Shown here piece by piece: positions 1 to 60,238 of a DNA stretch of 64,000 nucleotides; positions within the stretch are counted from its first letter, which is position 1, and the number at the start of each line of letters is the position of its first letter. Under the pieces are notes generated by a model. That model was not told where the DNA came from and searched no databases. It worked only from the letters and a program-made list of their open reading frames with translations. The stretch is from the IMG/VR virus record IMGVR_UViG_3300037089_000251, positions 1 through 64,000 of that record; one strand, written 5' to 3'. The position numbers and the translations under genes are program-made. The DNA comes from a virus.

Positions 1-13
1 GCAAACTTGCTGT

Positions 14-113
14 GAACGGCTTGACGACGGGCAGCGAATGGCAACCGGACGCCGGGTGTAACGCCGGACGGAAAGTTGGTTACACCCACCCCCTACCCAG
101 CGTCGAGCCGTTC
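14..113 (-). ncRNA. Unidentified ~100-nt rod/branched structured RNA inside the tRNA array
   Basis: Terminal stem GAACGGCUCGACG/CGUCAAGCCGUUC, extended by UGGGUAG/CUGCCCG; internal GGGUGUAAC/GUUACACCC. G-U pairs favour the minus strand. Follows the tRNA-Ala CCA after a short AGUUUUU spacer. Confidence 0.55.
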
Positions 114-120
114 AAAAACT

Positions 121-196
121 TGGTGGAACTGAAGGGATTCGGACCCTCCGCCTCCTGATTGCAAGTCAGGCGCTCTCCCAAATGAGCTACAGTCCC
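121..196 (-). tRNA. tRNA-Ala(TGC)
   Basis: Cloverleaf; acceptor GGGACTG/CAGTTCC with G3:U70; anticodon loop CTTGCAA; encoded CCA; T-loop reads TCCGAAT. Confidence 0.93.
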
Positions 197-203
197 AGAA
201 AAT

Positions 204-329
204 CGGTGGCGCTAACGGGCCTCGAACCCGTCTCATAACATGGCGTCGTAAGCAAGGGTTCTATGCTGCGAACGCCTCTCTTAATACGCAACCACGTCAG
301 GTTTTATCCATCCCTACAACTATAGCCCC
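204..329 (-). ncRNA. tRNA-like RNA (Ala-like ends) with a ~50-nt insertion in the anticodon arm
   Basis: 5' GGGGCTATAG; T-arm ACGGG-TTCGAGG-CCCGT; 3' TAGCGCC-A-CCG; extended stem TGACGTGG/CCATGTTA encloses a 48-nt insert; G3.G70 mismatch. Confidence 0.65.
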
Positions 330-337
330 ACAAAACT

Positions 338-412
338 TGGAGCGGGCGGAGGGGTTCGGACCCTCGACCTCTGCCTTGGCAAGGCAGCATTCTACCACTG
401 AACTACGCCCGC
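338..412 (-). tRNA. tRNA-Gly(GCC)
   Basis: Cloverleaf; GCGGGCG/CGCCCGC; anticodon loop CTTGCCAA region with GCC; U73; CCA; T-loop TCCGAAC. Confidence 0.95.
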
Positions 413-420
413 TCAAAACT

Positions 421-495
421 TGGTGCGCCGTGAGGGAATCGAACCCCCGACCTCTCCCGTGTGAAGGGAACGCTCTACCGCTGAGCCAACAGCGC
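421..495 (-). tRNA. tRNA-Val(CAC)
   Basis: Cloverleaf; anticodon loop TTCACAC; TTCGA T-loop; ends ACCA. Confidence 0.95.
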
Positions 496-506
496 ACATC
501 CAAACT

Positions 507-581
507 TGGTACACCAGATAGGACTCGAACCTATGGCTTCTTCCTTGTAAGGGAAGCACTCTGCCGCTGAGTTACTGGTGC
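507..581 (-). tRNA. tRNA-Val(TAC)
   Basis: Cloverleaf; CTTCC-CTTACAA-GGAAG anticodon arm; ends ACCA. Confidence 0.95.
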
Positions 582-593
582 TCAATCTCTCCT

Positions 594-627
594 AAAATGC
601 AAAAGGCGCTCGGTGTTCTGAGCGCCT
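594..627 (-). terminator. Intrinsic terminator (attenuator 3:4 hairpin) upstream of the left tRNA array
   Basis: AGGCGCTC/GAGCGCCT 8-bp stem followed by TTTGCATTTT on the minus strand. Confidence 0.75.
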
Positions 628-650
628 CCGGGTTGCTGGATTGGGATTTT

Positions 651-761
651 CTACCCAATCACCCCCGAAGGCGATGTATCGCCTCCCTCACACACGACTG
701 CGGCTTCGGCTATGCCTACTGCTTCGATGTCGCCTAGCGTTATGTGAGTGGCCATATTCAT
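651..761 (-). CDS. Putative attenuator leader peptide, 36 aa (MNMATHITLGDIEAVGIAEAAVVCEGGDTSPSGVIG)
   Basis: ATG 761 to TAG 651, just downstream of the promoter; 16 of codons 10-28 are GNN; overlaps the 1:2 and 2:3 hairpins. Confidence 0.7.
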   Translation of the reverse strand: MNMATHITLGDIEAVGIAEAAVVCEGGDTSPSGVIG

Positions 762-780
762 AGCATTCTCTCGCTGTCTA

Positions 781-820
781 TATAATACCCCCGGTAGTCG
801 TGTTTTTCAGGAAAATTTTA
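781..820 (-). promoter_or_regulatory. Promoter of the left tRNA operon
   Basis: AAAAACACGACTACCGGGGGTATTATA (807-781) is 26/27 identical to 55279-55305; ends in a -10-like TATTAT. Confidence 0.75.
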
Positions 821-5530: not shown

Positions 5531-6079
5531 CTAGCGTCGGCAATCGCACGGGATGACATCGGTGGTGAAGCTCCCCGGAAACTTTCCGGGAATCCTCACG
5601 TCACGGCTTCCGGTGCGACGGCACTTGGGGCAATCTGGGTCAGCCTTGGGGGGTCCGGTGATGCAGGAGCACATCCTGAAGTCGTGCGCCTTGGTTCCCC
5701 GGATGACCAACTCCAGCCCGCCCTCCCCCTTGCAGTTGGGGCAGTGCAAATCAGGAATTCTCTTCCAGGGGTTCCACGGGTGTTCCTTCATGAGGTAGTC
5801 CGGGGGGACAGCCTCGAACATCCTCCACCCGTACCGCTCCAGCGTCTCTTTCTTCAGACCCTTGTTGCGGTAGAACGGGTCGGGCGGAACCTCGTTCAGG
5901 TTGAAGTGGTAGTGGATGAGAATACGCACATCCTCGGCTGACAGCCGTCCTTCGTCCGTGCGTATGTCCTCTTTCCAAGTGGAGGCGGCAAACGGCCACT
6001 TGGGGGACAGTCCGTCTTGGCTGAGCCGACCCTTGCTCCGCAGTTTCTCGATGATGATTTTCTTCTCTTCGGTTGTCAC
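5531..6079 (-). CDS. Hypothetical protein with C-terminal Zn-binding motifs
   Basis: CPNC, CSC, CPKC, CDC; overlaps the upstream gene stop. Confidence 0.65.
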   Translation of the reverse strand: MTTEEKKIIIEKLRSKGRLSQDGLSPKWPFAASTWKEDIRTDEGRLSAEDVRILIHYHFNLNEVPPDPFYRNKGLKKETLERYGWRMFEAVPPDYLMKEHPWNPWKRIPDLHCPNCKGEGGLELVIRGTKAHDFRMCSCITGPPKADPDCPKCRRTGSRDVRIPGKFPGSFTTDVIPCDCRR

Positions 6080-6681
6080 TGTATCTCCTCGTTAATCACG
6101 ACTGATTCGTTCTGGTTGCTGATTTCAGTAATTGGAGTGGAGGAGGCGTCTACCTCTACTACTCTTCTCTTTCTATCTACTCTCTTCTGTCGTTTGACAG
6201 TGGGAGAATTTCTCAGTAAATTCCAGAATTTCACTAGCTTCGGAACTGTAAAGTTCCAGGGAGTTTCCAGTAACCCCCCAAAGATAGAGCCAACTTCTCG
6301 TTTAATTCCAGTAAAGTTACTGGAAGTTTCCGGTATGTTTACCGAGGGTTCCAGTAAGTATCCTTTCGCATCACACGGCTCCAAGAGGTCGGAGTGGCGT
6401 TGCAGCCATCCCTTAAGGGTTCTGATGTCCAGCTTGGGGAAGTGGGTGACGAGCTTCCTCGGGTCTGCCGGGAGCATCCGGTCGGGGCTGTCGGCGATGA
6501 GGCAGAGGAGGGTGATGTACAGACCCTTGTCCGCATACGTCATGTCCCTGACCTTCTCGGAGTGCAGCCAGCGCTTGTAGAACATCGGGAACCACTCCAT
6601 CTTCACCTTCTCGTCGTCAGGGAAGGTATCCCCGTCGTCGAAGTCCACAAGCTCCTCGGGTTTTAGCGTTTCTTCGCTCAT
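6076..6681 (-). CDS. YdaU/DUF1376-like replication-associated protein
   Basis: WFPMFYKRWL...MTYADKGLYITLLC...LPAD N-terminal pattern; adjacent to the helicase. Confidence 0.6.
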   Translation of the reverse strand: MSEETLKPEELVDFDDGDTFPDDEKVKMEWFPMFYKRWLHSEKVRDMTYADKGLYITLLCLIADSPDRMLPADPRKLVTHFPKLDIRTLKGWLQRHSDLLEPCDAKGYLLEPSVNIPETSSNFTGIKREVGSIFGGLLETPWNFTVPKLVKFWNLLRNSPTVKRQKRVDRKRRVVEVDASSTPITEISNQNESVVINEEIQ

Positions 6682-6687
6682 AGTCTC

Positions 6688-8289
6688 CTAATACTGCGGC
6701 ATGTCCCCCACGGTCTCATTGTCGATGTTGCGAATCTCCCTGATGCCCTCGGCAATCTGGGGAGTCAGCGGGCGCTGGTCGGAGCCTGGCTCGCTCCCCT
6801 TCCGGGCGAATGCCCCGGTGTTGGGGGACAGCACCATGATGCGGGCGGGCGGCTGCCTTCCGACCCTCTTCTTGACGCAGCCTACCTCCACCTCGTTCCT
6901 CGACGCATCCTTCATCTCCACGTCCGACCAGACGGTCAGGAGCAGGTCCATGTCGTCCTTGAGTTCGCTGAAGGTGCGGATGGAGTCGATGGTGTAGTGG
7001 CCGACGCCTTCCTTGAACTCGCCCTTCATGGCGTCCTTGTAGGACTCCTTGGTAATCTGGATGGGGCTGGCGACGATGATGCCCTTACCATCGTCGAAGT
7101 TCCGGGTGAACCTCTGTATCCGGTGGATGAGCCGCTTGATTTCCTGGTCTATCCACTTGGGGTCGCCTGTCACCTCGAAGCGGGTGATGTAGTCCAAGAG
7201 GATGAAGTCATAGTGGTTCTTCTGATGGTGAATCTTCACCCAGTCCTCAATGGTGTCCCAGTCGAACGGCCGGAACTCCTTGACCTCCAGAAGACCGGGA
7301 AGGTTCTTGCGGGTTTCGATGTCGTAGCAGATGTCCTGCATGTGCTTGATGTCTTCCGGGGTGACCCTGCGACTCTCCCAATCCTCGGTGCCGGGCAGAA
7401 CCATCCCCTTGTAGTCGGGGTGGGAGCTATGCAGGTAGGTCATGGCGTCCCAGATGTGCTGGGCGCTGTGCTCGGTCGAGGCATACAGCCCGTTGAACCC
7501 CTGGCTGAGCCACTGGTACACCATGTAGTTGGCAAGCGTGGTCTTGCCGTCGCCCGCCTGACCGACGATGCCCACGAACTTCATGTCGGAGTTCTTGCTG
7601 ATGATGACGTTGTCGTCGATGTGGGGGATGCCGATGGGCATCTGGCTGTCCACCGACTTCTCATCCATGCGGCTGGCAAAGCCCTCCCTGACCGCCTGCA
7701 TGTTCTCGTGCAGCATCCCGTCCAAGGGCGGGGCCTCGTCGGCGTAGTCACGGAGCCACGCCATCCTCAGGGAGCGCATGGCGGCGGTCGGTCCCTTCTC
7801 CTCCAGGTTCTCCGCCCCCACCCGGTGCTTCCATGCCTCTGCTCCTATGGAAATCTTTCCTGCCCGTGCATAGAGGAGTTCATGCCAGTTGTTCCTGACC
7901 TCGTTGAACGACATCTCCAGCAGGAGGAGGGTGTCGATGGTCTTGAGGCTCGCCGGGGTAGGCTCCCATGTCCCCAGCAGTTCAAGCTGCTCGATGATGC
8001 TGGTGGTGTTGTCCTTCTCCCCGTCGCCTCGGGCGAAGTCCTTGATGTTGTGGGGATTGTCTATGACGTACTTCTTGACATCCTGCGGGCCAGTGGGGAG
8101 GCAGCCTATCTTCTCGACGTATGTCCAGATTGCCCTCAGGGTCCCGCTGGTGATTACCTCGTCGCTTCCCGGCTTGAAGTCCAGATGCTTGGCGTATTGA
8201 AAGGTCCAAGCCAGCTTTTTCTTGTTTTGCAGCACGAACGAAGCAAGGTCCTGAGAACAAAGTCTCCGGGCAAGCTCAGATAGATACAT
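6688..8289 (-). CDS. dnaB: DnaB-like (SF4) replicative helicase
   Basis: Walker A GQAGDGKTT, STE, Walker B ILLDYI, SPIQ and ELKDDMD motifs. Confidence 0.8.
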   Translation of the reverse strand: MYLSELARRLCSQDLASFVLQNKKKLAWTFQYAKHLDFKPGSDEVITSGTLRAIWTYVEKIGCLPTGPQDVKKYVIDNPHNIKDFARGDGEKDNTTSIIEQLELLGTWEPTPASLKTIDTLLLLEMSFNEVRNNWHELLYARAGKISIGAEAWKHRVGAENLEEKGPTAAMRSLRMAWLRDYADEAPPLDGMLHENMQAVREGFASRMDEKSVDSQMPIGIPHIDDNVIISKNSDMKFVGIVGQAGDGKTTLANYMVYQWLSQGFNGLYASTEHSAQHIWDAMTYLHSSHPDYKGMVLPGTEDWESRRVTPEDIKHMQDICYDIETRKNLPGLLEVKEFRPFDWDTIEDWVKIHHQKNHYDFILLDYITRFEVTGDPKWIDQEIKRLIHRIQRFTRNFDDGKGIIVASPIQITKESYKDAMKGEFKEGVGHYTIDSIRTFSELKDDMDLLLTVWSDVEMKDASRNEVEVGCVKKRVGRQPPARIMVLSPNTGAFARKGSEPGSDQRPLTPQIAEGIREIRNIDNETVGDMPQY

Positions 8290-54680: not shown

Positions 54681-55268
54681 ATGAGCACCACCTACTACAA
54701 GTCCAAACGGGCATTTGACGTATCCCTCACTCTTTTGGCGATGCTGGCTGGCCTCCCCCTTTTCCTGGTAATCGCTGCCTCCATCTGGATGACCTCCAAG
54801 GGTCCCATCATCTTCCGGCAGAAGCGGGTGGGGTGGAAGGGCAGGGATTTCATGATGTACAAGTTTCGTACCATGAGGCCCGGAACGAGCAGGCGTCTTG
54901 ACCTCGTCACCAAGAACGACCCACGGGTTACGTGGGTGGGAAGGTTCCTCCGGGCGACCCACCTGGACGAGCTTCCTCAGCTTTTCAACGTCCTCAAGGG
55001 GGACATGAGCTTGGTTGGTCCCCGCCCCGAGGAGTACAATCTGGCACAGCACCTCTCCGAGAACATCCCCGGCTATACCGAGGCTCTCGACATGATGCCG
55101 GGTCTGACGGGTCTTTCGCAGCTTTGCGGCCGGGAAAAGGTAAATGCGCTGGGACGTAGGTTCGAGGTGAGGCTCCACAGGTGGTACAGGCGCAATAGAA
55201 GCTTCGCTTATGACGCCCTTTTGGTTCTGGCCACCGTCCCGCACGTGATTTTGCGCCGGGGCGTGTAA
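54681..55268 (+). CDS. Bacterial sugar transferase (PglC/WcaJ-type phosphoglycosyl transferase domain)
   Basis: KRAFDV, YKFRTM, DPRVTWVGRFLR..LDELPQLFNVLKGDMSLVGPRPE, PGLTG; start uncertain. Confidence 0.92.
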   Translation: MSTTYYKSKRAFDVSLTLLAMLAGLPLFLVIAASIWMTSKGPIIFRQKRVGWKGRDFMMYKFRTMRPGTSRRLDLVTKNDPRVTWVGRFLRATHLDELPQLFNVLKGDMSLVGPRPEEYNLAQHLSENIPGYTEALDMMPGLTGLSQLCGREKVNALGRRFEVRLHRWYRRNRSFAYDALLVLATVPHVILRRGV

Positions 55269-55305
55269 AATAATTCCGAAAAACACGACTACCGGGAGTA
55301 TTATA
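55266..55305 (+). promoter_or_regulatory. Promoter of the right tRNA operon
   Basis: AAAAACACGACTACCGGGAGTATTATA, 26/27 identical to the left copy. Confidence 0.75.
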
Positions 55306-55457
55306 TGAGTGGAGGGAATCACGGGACACCGAGACACCCTCCATATTATAGCCCACGACTCCTACATTCCCCGGCAAGACCGTGGATGGCACCAAGGGGG
55401 GTCGGAAATTCTGAGGGGGCGGACGCCCGGCGACTGCCCCCTCTTAGAGATTGCACC

Positions 55458-55535
55458 ATGCTGATGAACGTCACCATGCCGCACACACAAACGCAGACCC
55501 AAATTAGGGCTGGCGGCGGAGCCTGCTCGGGATAA
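55458..55535 (+). CDS. Putative attenuator leader peptide, 25 aa (MLMNVTMPHTQTQTQIRAGGGACSG)
   Basis: Contains ACA CAA ACG CAG ACC CAA ATT; overlaps the antiterminator; terminator begins 24 nt after the stop. Confidence 0.78.
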   Translation: MLMNVTMPHTQTQTQIRAGGGACSG

Positions 55536-55558
55536 TAAAATCCGAGCCGAGACTCTTC

Positions 55559-55588
55559 AGCCGCCCAAAAGGCGGCTTTCGTGTTTTT
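55559..55588 (+). terminator. Intrinsic terminator (attenuator) upstream of the right tRNA operon
   Basis: AGCCGCC-CAAAA-GGCGGCT followed by TTCGTGTTTTT. Confidence 0.75.
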
Positions 55589-55754
55589 AGGGGGGTTATG
55601 GGCAGCGTGAGCTTGACCGAGGTTGACAGGAACGACCCTTGGGATGTATTCTTGGACAAGCACCTTCCCGAGAAGGAAGATACTCAGGAGGCAGGTGCTC
55701 CAAGGCGGGGCGGTATCCGCTTGGTAAAAAGCGGCGGCACCGGGATGCGGAGGC

Positions 55755-56123
55755 ATGATGGCCAAGTTCGAGCAGCATTGCTTCGATTGCAAGGCTATCC
55801 TCGGCAATAGGCATGAGGAAGTCAATCGGTGGATGGACGGGCTGTTCTGGAAGAAGGGACCCGCCCACAGGCGCTTCCGGCACCACATGCACGGGGTCAG
55901 GAAGGCACAGGAGCTTTTCGGTCCCGAGGGAGCCAAGGCAGCCATCGTCCACATCGTCAGGGACATGGGTGCGGTGCCGAGGGAGAGGGACTACGACGAG
56001 GTACCGGAGGGGGTCACGATTTTCCCCACTTTCTGTGCCCCGCCGCTAGGCTTCGACCAGCACTTTGACATGTTTCAAGAGAAGACCGAGGAAGAGATTA
56101 AGAGGATTCTGGGGGAGACGTAA
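55755..56123 (+). CDS. Hypothetical protein (DUF6915-like His-rich motif)
   Basis: H...WMD...HRRFRHH..G....FG......HI..D.G; GGAGG RBS. Confidence 0.6.
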   Translation: MMAKFEQHCFDCKAILGNRHEEVNRWMDGLFWKKGPAHRRFRHHMHGVRKAQELFGPEGAKAAIVHIVRDMGAVPRERDYDEVPEGVTIFPTFCAPPLGFDQHFDMFQEKTEEEIKRILGET

Positions 56124-56205
56124 GGGATAGACCATGGGGTTTCCGGGCAGTATTGAGCCGTGCAATGAGGCTCCATAGCCCCCTTTTCCTCCCCCATCAG
56201 GTTTT

Positions 56206-56281
56206 TGGCGGGTAGCTCATCTGGCAGAGCGCAGTCCTGATAAGACTGAGGTGATGGGTTCAACTCCCATACCGCCAACCA
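56206..56281 (+). tRNA. tRNA-Ile(GAT)
   Basis: CAGTC-CTGATAA-GACTG anticodon arm; ends ACCA; G7.A66 mismatch. Confidence 0.88.
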
Positions 56282-56285
56282 TATT

Positions 56286-56618
56286 ATGGAAAAACGGCTC
56301 CTGTTCTCGCTCACGAAGAGCGATTTCGACTTCGAGACGTTCTGTACGGGAGGCAAGGGAGGACAGCACCGCAATGCCAAGCAGAACGGGGTGCGCTGCA
56401 TCCATCCTCCGTCCGGGGCACGGGCGGAGCACCGTGACGGGCGGGACCAGTACCGTAACAAGCAGGAGGCTTTCCGCAAGTGCGTCGGGTCCCCGGAGTT
56501 CAAGGCATGGCACCGGCTGGAAGTGGCCAGAAGGCTGGGGCAGCTTGGTGACATCGAGCGCAGGGTAGATGAGATGATGCGCTCGGAGAACCTGAAGTTT
56601 GAGTTAGTGGAAGCATAG
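56286..56618 (+). CDS. GGQ-motif peptidyl-tRNA hydrolase (PrfH/ArfB-like mini release factor)
   Basis: TGGKGGQHRNAKQNGVRCIHPPSG...R.QYRNK; 110 aa, no stop-codon recognition domain. Confidence 0.88.
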   Translation: MEKRLLFSLTKSDFDFETFCTGGKGGQHRNAKQNGVRCIHPPSGARAEHRDGRDQYRNKQEAFRKCVGSPEFKAWHRLEVARRLGQLGDIERRVDEMMRSENLKFELVEA

Positions 56619-56624
56619 TTTTGT

Positions 56625-56699
56625 GGCACCGTCGTCCAGCGGCTAGGACCTCCGCCCGATTAGCGGAAGACCTCGGTTCGAGTCCGAGCGGGGCTACCA
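56625..56699 (+). tRNA. Atypical tRNA, anticodon GAT on a Glu/Gln-like body
   Basis: Cloverleaf with loop CCGATTA (C33, U37), A4.G69 mismatch, ends ACCA. Confidence 0.6.
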
Positions 56700-56702
56700 A
56701 GT

Positions 56703-56812
56703 TTGTGGGGCGGTAGGACTCCGCTTAATCGAGCGAGCCGAGGGAGTGACCCCGGCAGTGTCGTACCTTAAAGTGGCGTACACACGCAAGAATTCAATAG
56801 ACTCGCCCACAA
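56703..56812 (+). ncRNA. Unidentified ~110-nt multibranch RNA inside the tRNA array
   Basis: Closing stem TTGTGGG(G)CG/CGCCCACAA plus three internal hairpins. Confidence 0.5.
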
Positions 56813-56868
56813 GGTTTAGCTCGCCTGCCATGCGCAGGAGGAGTTGAGGTCGCCTTAGGCGTCCTTTG

Positions 56869-56944
56869 GCCGGTGTAGTTCAGTTGGCAGAACGCACGCC
56901 TCGTAAGCGTGAAGTCGCAGGTTCGATGCCTGTCACCGGCTCCA
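56869..56944 (+). tRNA. tRNA-Thr(CGT)
   Basis: Canonical cloverleaf; loop CTCGTAA; CCA. Confidence 0.95.
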
Positions 56945-56950
56945 TTTTCT

Positions 56951-57025
56951 GCTGCCGTATCACAGTGGTAGTGAGCCTGCTTGGTAAGCAGGAGGTCGCT
57001 GGTTCGAGTCCAGCCGGTAGCTCCA
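56951..57025 (+). tRNA. tRNA-Thr(GGT)
   Basis: Cloverleaf; loop TTGGTAA; CCA. Confidence 0.93.
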
Positions 57026-57031
57026 TTTTAA

Positions 57032-57106
57032 GCCTTCGTAGCTCAGTGGCAGAGCGCTTCCTTGGTAAGGAAGAGGTCGTGGGTTCGATTCCCACCTTCG
57101 GCTCCA
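57032..57106 (+). tRNA. tRNA-Thr(GGT) with a 3-nt acceptor-stem bubble
   Basis: Acceptor GCCTTCG/CTTCGGC (positions 4-6 unpaired); otherwise canonical. Confidence 0.8.
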
Positions 57107-57110
57107 TTTG

Positions 57111-57185
57111 GTCGGTGTAGCTCAGTTGCAGAGCGCCGGTCCCGTAAACCGGAGGTCGGGGGTTCAAAACCCCTCATCGGCTCCA
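57111..57185 (+). tRNA. tRNA-Thr(CGT), atypical (C33, no D-loop GG)
   Basis: CCGGT-CCCGTAA-ACCGG anticodon arm; CCA. Confidence 0.75.
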
Positions 57186-57198
57186 TCTTGAGGTTATC

Positions 57199-57408
57199 AT
57201 GTGGCGTCAGGGAAGATTTCGGAAGACGAACGATGGCCAAGCCCCACGCTTCACCTATATGATATGCTGGGTGGAGGACAGGGCAGCCCTGAAGGTCGGG
57301 AAGTTCGTTAACTTCAAGGATGTCGAGGGTCTGTGGGAGGTCACTTGGCTATCGACCATAACCAGCAAGACCCGCCCCCGTCAGACCTGGCATGTCGGGG
57401 GACTATAA
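57199..57408 (+). CDS. Small hypothetical protein within the tRNA array
   Basis: 69 aa, GAGG RBS; fills the gap between two tRNAs. Confidence 0.6.
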   Translation: MWRQGRFRKTNDGQAPRFTYMICWVEDRAALKVGKFVNFKDVEGLWEVTWLSTITSKTRPRQTWHVGGL

Positions 57409-57412
57409 GTTT

Positions 57413-57497
57413 GCTACCGTGGCTCAGCGGCGACAGCACCGGTTTTGTAAACCGGCAGAGAAATCTCACAGCGGTTCGAGTCCGCTCGGTAGCTCCA
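57413..57497 (+). tRNA. tRNA-Thr(TGT) with a long variable arm
   Basis: Loop TTTGTAA; 14-nt variable region CAGAGAAATCTCAC; CCA. Confidence 0.85.
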
Positions 57498-57553
57498 GTT
57501 TGTGGTTGCCATCTGCATGGTTTATGATGCGTCTGGCAACCAAGTAAGGTTGT

Positions 57554-57629
57554 TCCGGGGTCACTTCTAACGGTAGGAAACTGGGCTTTGAACCCAGGAA
57601 TGGGGGTTCGACTCCCTCCCCCGGAACCA
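57554..57629 (+). tRNA. tRNA-Gln(TTG)
   Basis: U1-A72; CTGGG-CTTTGAA-CCCAG; ends ACCA. Confidence 0.88.
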
Positions 57630-57636
57630 AGATTGT

Positions 57637-57710
57637 TCCAGAGTCGTCTAACGTAGGATGCCGCTCTTTGAAAGCGTGCGATGGGGGTTCGATTCCACCC
57701 TCTGGAACCA
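57637..57710 (+). tRNA. tRNA-Gln(TTG), atypical
   Basis: Loop CTTTGAA; no D-loop GG; mismatches in the anticodon and T stems; ends ACCA. Confidence 0.75.
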
Positions 57711-57785
57711 AAGTTAAAGTCCATTATACGACACCTTAAGTTTTCCCGAAAAATCAGTTCTGGCCACGGTATTATGACTTGCAGT

Positions 57786-57856
57786 GCTGAGGCTATGGGG
57801 GCGCTTCCTTCTAAATTGACTCATACTCAAACCCTAGCTCCCCCGGTTTCCTCAGC
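57786..57856 (+). ncRNA. UCCUUCUA-loop RNA motif, copy 1
   Basis: GCTGAGG/CCTCAGC, CTAT.GGTTT internal loop, GGGGG/CCCCC, GCT/AGC; preceded by CGGTATTAT. Confidence 0.72.
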
Positions 57857-57892
57857 GTAATTTTTGGATTTACCCGGTATTCTATAAGTGGT

Positions 57893-57955
57893 GGCTGGCT
57901 ATGGGGGCGCTTCCTTCTATTCCTTTGGCGAAAATAGCTCTCCTGATTTCCAGCC
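57893..57955 (+). ncRNA. UCCUUCUA-loop RNA motif, copy 2
   Basis: GGCTGG/CCAGCC, CTAT.GATTT, GGGGG/CTCCT, GCT/AGC; preceded by CGGTATTCT. Confidence 0.72.
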
Positions 57956-58045
57956 CCGTTCTCATCCCAGTTCCTAGTGATTAGTCCGCATCAAGGTCAC
58001 GGTTGCTACAGCCGAGGCATAGCCTCGTGCCCGAGGAGGCTGAAA

Positions 58046-60238
58046 ATGGAGAACAAGAAGCTGAACACCATACTGATTCGCCGCAAGGGACTCGTGTTGG
58101 TCCCGGATGCGACTACGCCGTTCCCCACTGGGGCTGATGCCGTCGTTCATCGTGACCGCATGAAGACCCTTCTCGCCACCTTCAACCGGAACCTTCAGGA
58201 CATCGGCTACACCCTGTCGGCGAAGCTCATCAAGGCACTCTGCCTTGCGGACGAGCGCTATGCCCTCAACACCATGAAGTCCATCCTTGAAATCGTCAAG
58301 GAACTCGGCGGCGTCAAGCACTATTACCCGATGTACCCGAACTTCCCCGAGCAGGTCATCCAGATGGAGGAGGCGGAGCTTTACCTGAACGCCGTCTTCC
58401 ACTACTTCTCCGACTGGCTCGCCGATATCTCGGGCGACCGGGACTACATCTGGATGCCCCGCTACCACAAGGACCACCGGGAGCCGCTGCACGAGAAGGT
58501 CAAGCTGCGTGTGCTCGACCTCGGCACCGAAGATTATGTGAACACCCTGGCGACCCAGCTTGCCACCGCCAATACCTCCCTGTCGCCGACCGACAAGGCA
58601 GACCTGGCAGTCCTCATCGCCGATTTCAGGAAGCTGCCGGAAGGCATCCCCAACAAGGAGAACCTTGCCTTCGTGGCTTCCGTCCTGTTCCAGAGGGTGG
58701 AGGACCTGACCCCGTACTTCAAGACCGCCACCGATGTCCTTCGGCTCGCCACGGCGCTGAGCGAGGGGGACGTGTCCCTTGCCGCCCCGTCGAAGTTCCG
58801 CAAGTTCAAGAGGGTCGAACGGCGCAGGCTGCTTGACCTGATTGACCACTGCGGCAACCTTCAGGAGGACATGCTGCGCTTCGAGGGACGGTGGGTGAAG
58901 CTCTCCGAGCGCCTGCACCCCGGCGACTACTGGGACAAGTACCAGAAGGCGTTCTCGGCGATTCAGGCCATCCGCAACGGGCACACCGACCAGACCTTCC
59001 GCTCCAAGGTGGAGGAGGCTGTCCGGGGCGGGAAGGTTAAGGCTGCCGTCGAGCTTCTGGGGGACCGCCCCGGCGAGTTCGGCCGCCGTCTCGACCACTT
59101 GGTTCGGAAGGCCCGCACCAAGGATGCCAAGGTTGCGGCCATCCAGGGATTCCTTGACGTTGCGTCCGTCGCCTCGACCCCCGTGCTGCTCCAGATGATG
59201 GCGCACTTCGACCACCGTCAGGACGGAACGGACAGGACCATCTTCCCCAAGGGGAACGTGGCCAAGGTCATGAGCATCGACCCTCTCCCGGAGATGGACG
59301 GGGAGCTTTCCAAGCTGGTGTCCCGTGGCATCCGCCGTGTCCTCCGCAAGCGGTTCAGCGAGCTACCGGAGCTTGGGAACGTATACCTCGACCCGGCGCT
59401 CAAGGACTACCTGCTCCCTTTCAGCCAGAGGAGCGCCTCGAAGGCATTGAGGACGCTCGTCCGGGGCAGCCACATCCCGTTCGGATTTTCGGACAAGAAC
59501 ACCATCCGCCTGTTCATCTGGTGGAAGGAGCCGAAGGGGGGGTTGCAGGGGGAGTGGTCCGACCGTGTGGACCTCGACCTGTCGGCGGTCGCCTATGCCG
59601 ATGGCTGGAGGAACTTGGGTGCGGTCGCCTACTACGACTTGCGGAACGACTATGCCCGGCACTCCGGGGACATCACGTCCGCCCCGAAGGGAGCGAGCGA
59701 GTTCATTGACATCGACATCAACAAGGCGCTTGCGGCCGGTGTCCGCTACATCGTCATGAGCGTCAACAGCTACACCGAGCAGAACCTCTGTGACCTTCCT
59801 GAGTGCTATGCCGGTTGGATGCTCCGGGAGAAGCCGCAGTCCGGGGAGGTCTATGACCCTCGTACCCTTGAGGACAAGGTTGACCTCGCCATGCAGGCGA
59901 CGGCGGGAATCCCGCTCATCGCCGACCTGGTGGAGCGCAAGCTCATCTGGTGCGATGCCGCCATGTCGGTAAACCGCTACCGCTGGAACAATGTCGAGAG
60001 CAACAAGGGGACCATCGAGCTTCTCGGCAAGGCTCTGGAGAATGTCACCAAGCCGAGCATCTACGACCTGCTCTACCTGCACGCCAAGGCCCGTGGGACG
60101 CTCGTGGAAGACCGTAAGAAGGCGGATGTGGAGTTCTCCGTCGCCAAGGGCACCCAGTATGACCTTGAGAGGCTTGCCTCCGAGTTCATGGCGGATGCCC
60201 CCAAGGCGATGCCGAAGGCACACACCGCAGCGGCGTAA
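58046..60238 (+). CDS. Large helical-repeat protein with C-terminal TerD-like domain (possible Ro60/TROVE relative)
   Basis: PMYPNFP, ENLA, TATDVLRLA, RPGEFGRRLDHL; C-terminal RVDLDLSA...HSGDITSAPKGASEFID; GAGGAGG RBS. Confidence 0.8.
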   Translation: MENKKLNTILIRRKGLVLVPDATTPFPTGADAVVHRDRMKTLLATFNRNLQDIGYTLSAKLIKALCLADERYALNTMKSILEIVKELGGVKHYYPMYPNFPEQVIQMEEAELYLNAVFHYFSDWLADISGDRDYIWMPRYHKDHREPLHEKVKLRVLDLGTEDYVNTLATQLATANTSLSPTDKADLAVLIADFRKLPEGIPNKENLAFVASVLFQRVEDLTPYFKTATDVLRLATALSEGDVSLAAPSKFRKFKRVERRRLLDLIDHCGNLQEDMLRFEGRWVKLSERLHPGDYWDKYQKAFSAIQAIRNGHTDQTFRSKVEEAVRGGKVKAAVELLGDRPGEFGRRLDHLVRKARTKDAKVAAIQGFLDVASVASTPVLLQMMAHFDHRQDGTDRTIFPKGNVAKVMSIDPLPEMDGELSKLVSRGIRRVLRKRFSELPELGNVYLDPALKDYLLPFSQRSASKALRTLVRGSHIPFGFSDKNTIRLFIWWKEPKGGLQGEWSDRVDLDLSAVAYADGWRNLGAVAYYDLRNDYARHSGDITSAPKGASEFIDIDINKALAAGVRYIVMSVNSYTEQNLCDLPECYAGWMLREKPQSGEVYDPRTLEDKVDLAMQATAGIPLIADLVERKLIWCDAAMSVNRYRWNNVESNKGTIELLGKALENVTKPSIYDLLYLHAKARGTLVEDRKKADVEFSVAKGTQYDLERLASEFMADAPKAMPKAHTAAA

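Follow-up and report, generated by a model that had tools for sequence, protein, structure and literature searches.

Leader-peptide attenuation is a textbook mechanism of amino-acid and aminoacyl-tRNA synthetase operons. Multivalent attenuators are known from enterobacteria, with Thr and Ile codons in thrL, and Ile, Val and Leu codons in the ilvGMEDA and ilvBN leaders, while the pheST attenuator of E. coli (pheM leader) controls phenylalanyl-tRNA synthetase and senses the cognate charged tRNA. T-box riboswitches, marked by a conserved T-box sequence and a Stem I specifier, bind uncharged tRNA directly, need no open reading frame (ORF), and control aminoacyl-tRNA synthetase, biosynthesis or transport genes. 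Here we describe a short leader ORF preceding the tRNA genes of a giant uncultured phage. It was found in the first 64 kb (positions 1 to 64,000, hereafter the window) of IMG/VR record IMGVR_UViG_3300037089_000251, a 104.5-kb linear viral contig (G000) of 58% GC and 33% CheckV completeness. Judging from its sequence and from folding models, this leader is probably a multivalent, ribosome-mediated (leader-peptide) transcription attenuator, which gates a phage tRNA operon and feeds back on tRNA supply. Its anatomy, its conservation and the operon-specific match between its codons and the tRNAs are observed features of the locus. Applied to tRNA genes, attenuation of this type would let the ribosome measure the operon's own product.

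Among published cases, the long tRNA array (trn operon) of Anabaena PCC 7120 comes nearest. It is repressor-controlled rather than attenuated: it is normally silent and is induced by translational stress (PMC8421152), under the control of the ribbon-helix-helix repressor TrcR acting at the promoter (PMC10272220). The text of PMC8421152 does not contain "attenuat", "leader" or "terminator", and full-text literature searches returned no description of leader-peptide control of tRNA genes. It has also been reported that phage tRNAs counter tRNA-cleaving host defences (PMC10264068, PMC11555353), in work that concerns tRNA function, not the control of transcription. Such defences are a plausible selective reason for a phage to carry a tRNA set that is deployed when host tRNAs fail.

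Leader ORF, RNA switch and tRNA array

The leader and its array lie on the minus strand at the very end of the contig (window position 1 is the contig end). Their elements are listed below in order of transcription.

810-778, minus: promoter-like element (consensus scan, 9/12 matches, site 810-782)
810-805, minus: -35-like hexamer, part of the promoter-like element
800-791, minus: conserved box CGACTACCGG, part of the same element
789-778, minus: invariant GGTATTATATAG with the -10-like TATTAT (787-782), a 12-nucleotide (nt) block unchanged in 7/7 leader variants
772-766, minus: Shine-Dalgarno-like purine-rich stretch GAGAGAA, 4 nt 5' of the start codon (read from the sequence)
761-651, minus: leader ORF, 36 codons plus TAG (ORF list; ATG 761-759, TAG 653-651)
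734-678, minus: sensor run, codons 10-28 (read from the sequence)
695-684, minus: predicted critical stall window, codons 23-26, GTG TGT GAG GGA (footprint masking model)
686-679 with 674-667, loop 678-675, minus: helix 1:2, anti-antiterminator and possible pause hairpin (ViennaRNA minimum-energy fold)
673-664 with 632-623, minus: antiterminator 2:3, enclosing the nested hairpin (duplex -21 kcal/mol)
660-654 with 645-639, minus: nested hairpin, whose loop holds the stop codon 653-651
629-620 with 611-602, loop 619-612, minus: intrinsic terminator 3:4 (terminator scan)
581-507, minus: tRNA-Val (TAC), first of the array (ARAGORN; Rfam RF00005, 69.1 bits)
495-421, minus: tRNA-Val (CAC) (ARAGORN; Rfam)
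412-338, minus: tRNA-Gly (GCC) (ARAGORN; Rfam)
196-121, minus: tRNA-Ala (TGC), last before the contig end (ARAGORN; Rfam)

Within the sensor run, 16 of the 19 codons are GNN, the exceptions being ATC, ATA and TGT. The 11 different GNN codons cover five amino acids, to which TGT adds Cys and ATA adds Ile. The 36-codon ORF, its GNN density and its 11 codons had been described in a first-pass annotation made from the letters alone, and each was recovered at the coordinates claimed, as were the four downstream tRNAs, on whose identity ARAGORN and Rfam concur. This is the only ORF containing 16 GNN codons in a 19-codon stretch among 684 ORFs of 25-60 amino acids (six frames of the 104.5-kb contig). 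The GNN share in long ORFs is 0.345, giving a binomial P(>=16/19) of 1.2e-5, uncorrected for the choice of the stretch; at least 16 GNN codons are reached by 39 of 28,871 19-codon stretches of real genes.

The three helices and the nested GATTGGG/CCCAATC hairpin proposed in the same annotation are all present, including the position of the stop codon in the hairpin loop, 11-20 nt beyond segment 2. Antiterminator 2:3 overlaps terminator 3:4 at 629-623 (7 nt) and helix 1:2 at 673-667, and the pairings are thus mutually exclusive. Two T tracts (604-601 and 597-594, minus strand) accompany the terminator, the last T run ending about 13 nt before tRNA-Val (TAC). Folding of region 692-596 gives -45 kcal/mol (z = -4.7 relative to 200 dinucleotide-preserving shuffles), and that of the isolated 1:2 hairpin -12.5 kcal/mol.

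In ViennaRNA, helix 1:2 and the terminator form in the unmasked leader RNA, together with the nested hairpin. With segment 1 masked, 2:3 becomes the minimum-energy fold and four terminator pairs remain, while masking of segment 2 restores the terminator fold. We also moved a 28-nt ribosome footprint codon by codon along the leader. Only with the A-site at codons 23-26 does this model give the antiterminator, the number of terminator pairs dropping from 9 to 4; from codon 27 through the stop codon it gives the terminator. The TGT-GAG stretch of two homologous leaders (L125 and L124) shows equivalent behaviour. In silico, the leader thus behaves like a classical three-state attenuator. A cmscan against Rfam (positions 1-2000 and 55200-58100, E up to 1) returned tRNAs and sub-threshold noise only, with no leader family; within 1-2000 there was no match to the T-box (RF00230) at E up to 1.

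The promoter-like element contains a 16-nt motif, ACCGNNNGTATTATRT, confined to the leaders of tRNA operons (two sites in the 104.5-kb contig and three in the 317-kb genome of a relative, G001), and the promoter region is 88% identical to that of a sister leader of the window (55266-55306). A promoter scan of the roughly 20 nt between the terminator T tract and the first tRNA was negative. A plus-strand promoter-like match at 757-786 was rejected as incidental, since it corresponds to the AT-rich -10 block in reverse complement and is aimed into a gene in antisense.

Codon match and conservation of the leaders

Evidence that the leader codons are related to the operon they precede comes from relative G001 (316,945 bp, 99% complete). 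Its 62 tRNAs, which by standard wobble rules read 60/61 sense codons, form four arrays. Upstream of every array lie a promoter, a short ORF and a terminator, the promoters all being of one type. The share of codons belonging to the operon's own set was calculated for whole ORFs, so that no stretch was chosen, with the codon usage of contig G000 as the background.

G001 array A (Tyr, Leu, Ser): leader A, own-set codons 18/29, P=4e-7
G001 array B (His, Arg, Asn, Lys, Phe, Met, Pro, Gln-CTG, Trp): leader B, own-set codons 22/28, P=9e-7
G001 array C (GNN decoders and Cys): leader C, own-set codons 17/32, P=0.03
G001 array D (Ile-GAT, Thr, Gln-TTG): leader D, own-set codons 10/23, P=9e-4
Window GNN leader (type C): own-set codons 21/35, P=3e-3
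Window Ile/Thr/Gln leader (type D, 55458-55535): own-set codons 8/24, P=0.02

None of the comparisons of a leader with the codon sets of the other operons was significant, either in G001 or in the window, and leaders chosen on geometry alone, blind to codon content, showed this enrichment too. The match reaches the synonymous level: in G001, CAG is used in leader B of the Gln-CTG operon and CAA in leader D of the Gln-TTG operon, while ATA occurs in every GNN leader and in neither of the Ile/Thr/Gln (type D) leaders examined. In a distant phage (L017), Cys-GCA is part of the Leu/Ser/Tyr array, and the leader of that array contains two Cys codons. Sister leaders sample codons for up to nine amino acids. 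The annotation's suggestion that the tRNAs fall into operons inducible one by one, through sensors of their own, is supported by G001, in which four operons have four leaders, each enriched only in its own set.

Not all arrays fit this scheme. The ORF upstream of a Leu/Cys/Ser/Tyr array (L021) has no convincing codon match, and a recognisable leader is absent at many arrays of more distant phages (L017 plus strand, L019, L036, L040). These leaderless arrays indicate that the system is a feature of a clade and not universal. In another distant phage, L056 (NADAR protein 45% identical), a 19-codon ORF with Tyr-Gln-Asn is followed by a terminator and then by tRNAs for Tyr, Gln and Asn (about 5900-6086, plus strand; P=0.04). 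This arrangement may be an independent, small instance of a leader-gated design.

Relatives of the GNN leader were gathered with the neighbouring NADAR-domain gene as a probe, and then with the 19-base core of helix 1:2. Homologues were present in 22 contigs (9 viral and 13 metagenomic) and represent six distinct versions besides that of the window. The resulting seven variants make up three subfamilies: the window and L130; L125 and L128; L124, L138 and L141. Six of the 19 metagenome matches to the core (L137, L142, L147, L149, L150, L155) were discarded as chance matches with no leader or tRNA context. Comparison with public phage records by blastn gave tRNA-to-tRNA matches only and no relative of the leader, and the 115-residue upstream protein, used as a probe, found two weak, partial matches only.

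Every homologous leader precedes an array that opens, like that of the window, with Val-TAC, Val-CAC, Gly-GCC and Ala-TGC. All untruncated arrays contain Val-TAC/CAC/GAC, Gly-GCC/TCC (most also CCC) and Ala-TGC/CGC (most also GGC), together with Asp-GTC (except L125), Glu-CTC (most also TTC) and Cys-GCA; Ile-TAT is additionally present in L042, L141 and L152. In the closest relative (G002), whose leader is 83% identical, the order is Val, Val, Gly, Ala, Gly-TCC, Gly-CCC, Ala-GGC, Asp, Val-GAC, Ala-CGC, Glu-CTC, Cys, Glu-TTC. The array of the window had been predicted to continue with Asp, Glu, Gly-TCC, Ala-GGC and Val-GAC. This holds for the uncut arrays of the relatives; G000 itself ends at base 1, which makes the array beyond that point unreadable in this record. 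In all, 18 of the 19 sensor codons of the window are cognate to tRNAs of the homologous arrays, ATC being the sole codon left unread. The presence of TGT and ATA in the run is accounted for, since the relatives' arrays hold Cys-GCA and, in some cases, Ile-TAT.

The NADAR proteins encoded next to the variants are just 57-58% identical, so neutral intergenic DNA is expected to be saturated with change. All seven variants nevertheless share the promoter-like site, the ORF layout and a purine run of the GAG/GGAG type at the equivalent position. The homologous ORFs of the six other variants (30-36 codons) keep the frame, with indels of 3, 12 or 15 nt. Between the window and L130 there are seven differences in codons 1-33, all at third positions and synonymous, while directly 5' of the start codon 8 of 16 aligned positions differ. 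The ninth codon changes from Val to Ala to Val among L124, L138 and L141, remaining GNN throughout, and TGT (inside the critical stall window) and ATA are present in all seven leaders. At the level of sequence comparison, this pattern of substitutions and indels is the signature of a translated ORF selected for codon class.

The RNA structures are maintained as well. The stem of the nested hairpin has four different sequences among the variants; in each of these, the stop codon, TAG or TAA, occupies the 5' edge of the hairpin loop. Antiterminator 2:3 has 10-13 pairs (-21 to -25.5 kcal/mol) and overlaps the terminator by 3-7 nt. The terminator stem also has four different sequences, and RNAalifold detected four stem pairs changed on both sides across the seven variants. 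Evidence for compensatory pairs was taken from RNAalifold and from the listed stems; a loop-outward count was set aside because loop sizes differ and the positions are not strictly homologous. An outer helix (alignment columns 47-51 with 104-108, corresponding to about 755-751 with 698-694 of the window, minus strand) is conserved too, with one compensatory change from A-U to C-G (RNAalifold). It encloses the sensor run, joining the first codons of the ORF to those preceding the critical stall window, and may limit re-initiation or close the sensor loop.

An N-terminal preface, Thr-His-(Ile/Val)-Thr-Leu (746-735 in the window, minus strand), is common to GNN leaders (window, L130) and to the Tyr/Leu leaders L030 and L034. 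The shared residues suggest a modular construction, in which a constant 5' preface and a constant 3' switch would flank an exchangeable sensor run.

Proposed mechanism and alternative explanations

Taking these features together, the following mechanism can be proposed. Transcription would start at a promoter type reserved for tRNA operons, and a ribosome would translate the 36-codon leader, which consists mostly of codons read by the operon's own tRNAs (GNN, TGT and ATA). If decoding is fast, the ribosome would reach the end of the ORF, with its stop codon in the hairpin loop, and occlude segment 2, allowing the 3:4 terminator to form about 20 nt before the first tRNA. If a charged cognate tRNA is short, the ribosome would lag, most effectively at codons 23-26, and segment 2 would pair with segment 3. 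By taking the base of the terminator, the 2:3 helix would let RNA polymerase enter the Val, Gly and Ala (by homology also Asp, Glu and Cys) tRNA genes. The new tRNAs would then speed translation of the leader and switch the operon off, placing tRNA supply under negative feedback. The steps that we infer are translation of the leader, the coupling of stalling to read-through and the trigger (loss of host tRNAs or a mismatch in codon usage).

Several points weigh against this mechanism. The Shine-Dalgarno-like run is weak, weaker than the GGAGG preceding neighbouring genes. GNN codons are frequent, with a share of 0.345 in long ORFs, and the GNN leader taken alone is statistically the weakest of the four leader types. 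In the equilibrium footprint model only about four codons yield the antiterminator, which leaves the role of the other 12 GNN codons unexplained. The sequence of helix 1:2 is invariant in all variants and therefore provides no covariation evidence for this helix, and the seven variants make up just three subfamilies. Coupling of transcription and translation in the host is assumed. Finally, when the growing transcript is folded without a ribosome, 2:3 displaces 1:2 once segment 3 emerges: 2:3 has about -21 kcal/mol, to which the nested hairpin adds, compared with -12.5 kcal/mol for 1:2. The polarity of the switch in the absence of translation is consequently uncertain, and a state of no or late translation may, according to the model, lead to read-through instead of super-attenuation. 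An ON-by-default state would in turn explain why the codon class of the operon is kept across the entire 19-codon run, not just at four codons.

A broader interpretation is put forward more tentatively. Each leader might serve as a single channel in a phage-borne monitor that surveys the whole decoding pool codon by codon. The phage could then replace precisely the host tRNAs that fail, for instance through anticodon-nuclease defence or host shut-off, with each operon throttled by its own feedback. Because the 2:3 pairing is thermodynamically favoured over 1:2, such a switch might be ON by default and turned OFF only by fast translation, in which case the entire set of roughly 20 sensor codons could count, and not just the four of the footprint model.

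The same hardware might instead sense general translation capacity or amino-acid charging, acting as a host shut-off or starvation timer and not reporting a specific tRNA pool. We regard this as unlikely, although 2:3 would be favoured whenever the leader ribosome slows, the success of 2:3 over 1:2 in the ribosome-free fold is compatible with a default ON state requiring fast translation for OFF, and the use of one dedicated promoter type at all tRNA operons suggests common control. A general capacity sensor would have no need of four different codon sets, and the finding that four leaders of one genome are each enriched in the codons of their own operon only thus counts against it. The match extends to synonymous choice (CAA versus CAG, ATA versus ATY), and amino-acid starvation is not relieved by making tRNA.

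It is still less probable, and in our opinion quite improbable, that the locus consists of an ordinary small gene or small RNA and a leaky insulator terminator before a constitutively read-through array, the pairings and codons being incidental. The overlap of 2:3 with 3:4 and the looped stop codon have been kept through sequence change in all seven variants, and three other leader types match their own arrays. Between subfamilies the peptide varies by indels and substitutions while the codon class is kept, which is not how a functional small protein evolves. Leaky terminators do exist upstream of stable-RNA genes, GNN-rich short ORFs can arise in 58%-GC DNA, and 39 of the 19-codon gene stretches have at least 16 GNN codons; among small ORFs of the contig this density is reached by just one of 684.

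A ribosome-independent switch, in which a small ligand, a protein antiterminator or, in the manner of a T-box, uncharged tRNA would stabilise 2:3 while the ORF stays untranslated, is very improbable. Leader triplets could in principle pair with anticodons, and the conserved outer helix with its compensatory change does enclose the sensor run, but T-box and other riboswitch identities were rejected on the strength of the Rfam results (no T-box, riboswitch or leader family at E up to 1) and of the signatures of translation (frame-preserving indels, third-position-only change and a conserved in-frame stop). Binding of at least a dozen different tRNAs by a single RNA is also unlikely.

Sister operon, neighbouring genes and comparison with known systems

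Apart from the array described above (581-121, minus strand), ARAGORN found a single further tRNA array in contig G000 (56206-57710, plus strand). An intron-mode call of tRNA-Gln with a 301-nt intron at 7612-8000 was treated as a probable false positive. The second array belongs to the operon of the sister leader, whose features are given here with the genes upstream of the GNN leader.

55458-55590, plus: sister leader; Thr, Gln and Ile codons form a run of seven, the loop of a hairpin holds the stop codons, and a terminator is present
56286-56618, plus: RF-1 (GGQ) domain protein of 110 amino acids, inside the sister tRNA operon (Pfam E=2.5e-10)
1155-1616, minus: NADAR-domain protein, upstream neighbour (Pfam E=2e-20)
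1626-2204, minus: proteasome-subunit-like protein, upstream neighbour (Pfam, weak, E=2.5e-4, just under the cut-off)

Unlike the GNN leader, the sister leader has a 5' untranslated region of about 150 nt. Two protein genes come after it, along with the Ile/Thr/Gln tRNAs and the GGQ gene; the attenuator would accordingly gate a mixed operon of protein and tRNA genes. The GGQ protein resembles a peptidyl-tRNA hydrolase or a ribosome-rescue factor; its homologues (55-82% identity) occur in 35 viral contigs, and tRNA genes are present in the fetched flanks of about two-thirds of them. A ninth tRNA at 57032-57103 (plus strand), missed by ARAGORN, was recognised by the Rfam model (58.8 bits); this candidate has a Thr-GGT-like anticodon loop and, by eye, mismatches in the acceptor stem.

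In both arrays CCA is encoded in nearly all tRNAs and is followed by a short T-rich spacer, which in the GNN array is always AGTTT (CCAAGTTT) and may be a common processing or spacer signal. The 141-nt spacer between tRNA-Gly and tRNA-Ala (197-337, minus strand) is strongly structured (-46.9 kcal/mol). Its 3' end resembles the T-arm and acceptor strand of a tRNA, with no tRNA called by ARAGORN or Rfam, and it opens with the same AGTTTTGTGGGG as the spacer at 56700-56868 (plus strand). The 120-nt element after tRNA-Ala (1-120, minus strand), truncated where the contig ends, forms a single long, irregular hairpin (-55.8 kcal/mol) and terminates, as the tRNA spacers do, in CAAGTTTGC.

If the attenuator reading is correct, huge phages regulate large tRNA sets on demand and not constitutively, and a mechanistic link exists between phage tRNA arrays and the host defences that target tRNAs. 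The leader would also be a natural sensor that reports tRNA availability codon-specifically and could be transferred into reporter constructs. Each leader predicts which tRNA depletion should open which operon.

When compared with the systems described so far, the phage leader resembles the T-box in having competing terminator and antiterminator helices and in the proposed use of attenuation to report the state of specific tRNAs; it differs from it in possessing an ORF with signatures of translation and in lacking a T-box match. With the trn operon of Anabaena it shares the character of an accessory tRNA operon which, as proposed for the phage, is switched on when translation is impaired, whereas the Anabaena operon relies on a promoter repressor and not on a codon-matched leader. 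As in pheST, the layout is that of leader-peptide attenuation at a gene of the translation apparatus; pheST, however, is a cellular operon with a protein-coding target and a response to one amino acid, while the phage leader would gate tRNA genes and has many codons to be read.

In architecture, the phage leader also corresponds to the thrL and ilv leaders. Here, too, a promoter-proximal short ORF contains a stretch of some 15-20 codons in which several regulatory amino acids are strongly represented, the helices 1:2, 2:3 and 3:4 are mutually exclusive, the terminator lies just before the structural genes and the position of the ribosome selects the fold (for the phage, in silico). The phage element, which is virus-encoded, is distinguished by the breadth of its sensor, sampling 11 GNN codons for five amino acids in addition to Cys and Ile-ATA, and by a stop codon placed in the loop of a hairpin nested within the antiterminator. 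Above all, the downstream genes are tRNAs and not the amino-acid biosynthesis or aminoacyl-tRNA synthetase genes that attenuators usually control. Where thrL and ilv leaders gate biosynthetic enzymes, the product regulated by the phage leader would be tRNA, which, through the speed of decoding, would act directly on the sensor itself.

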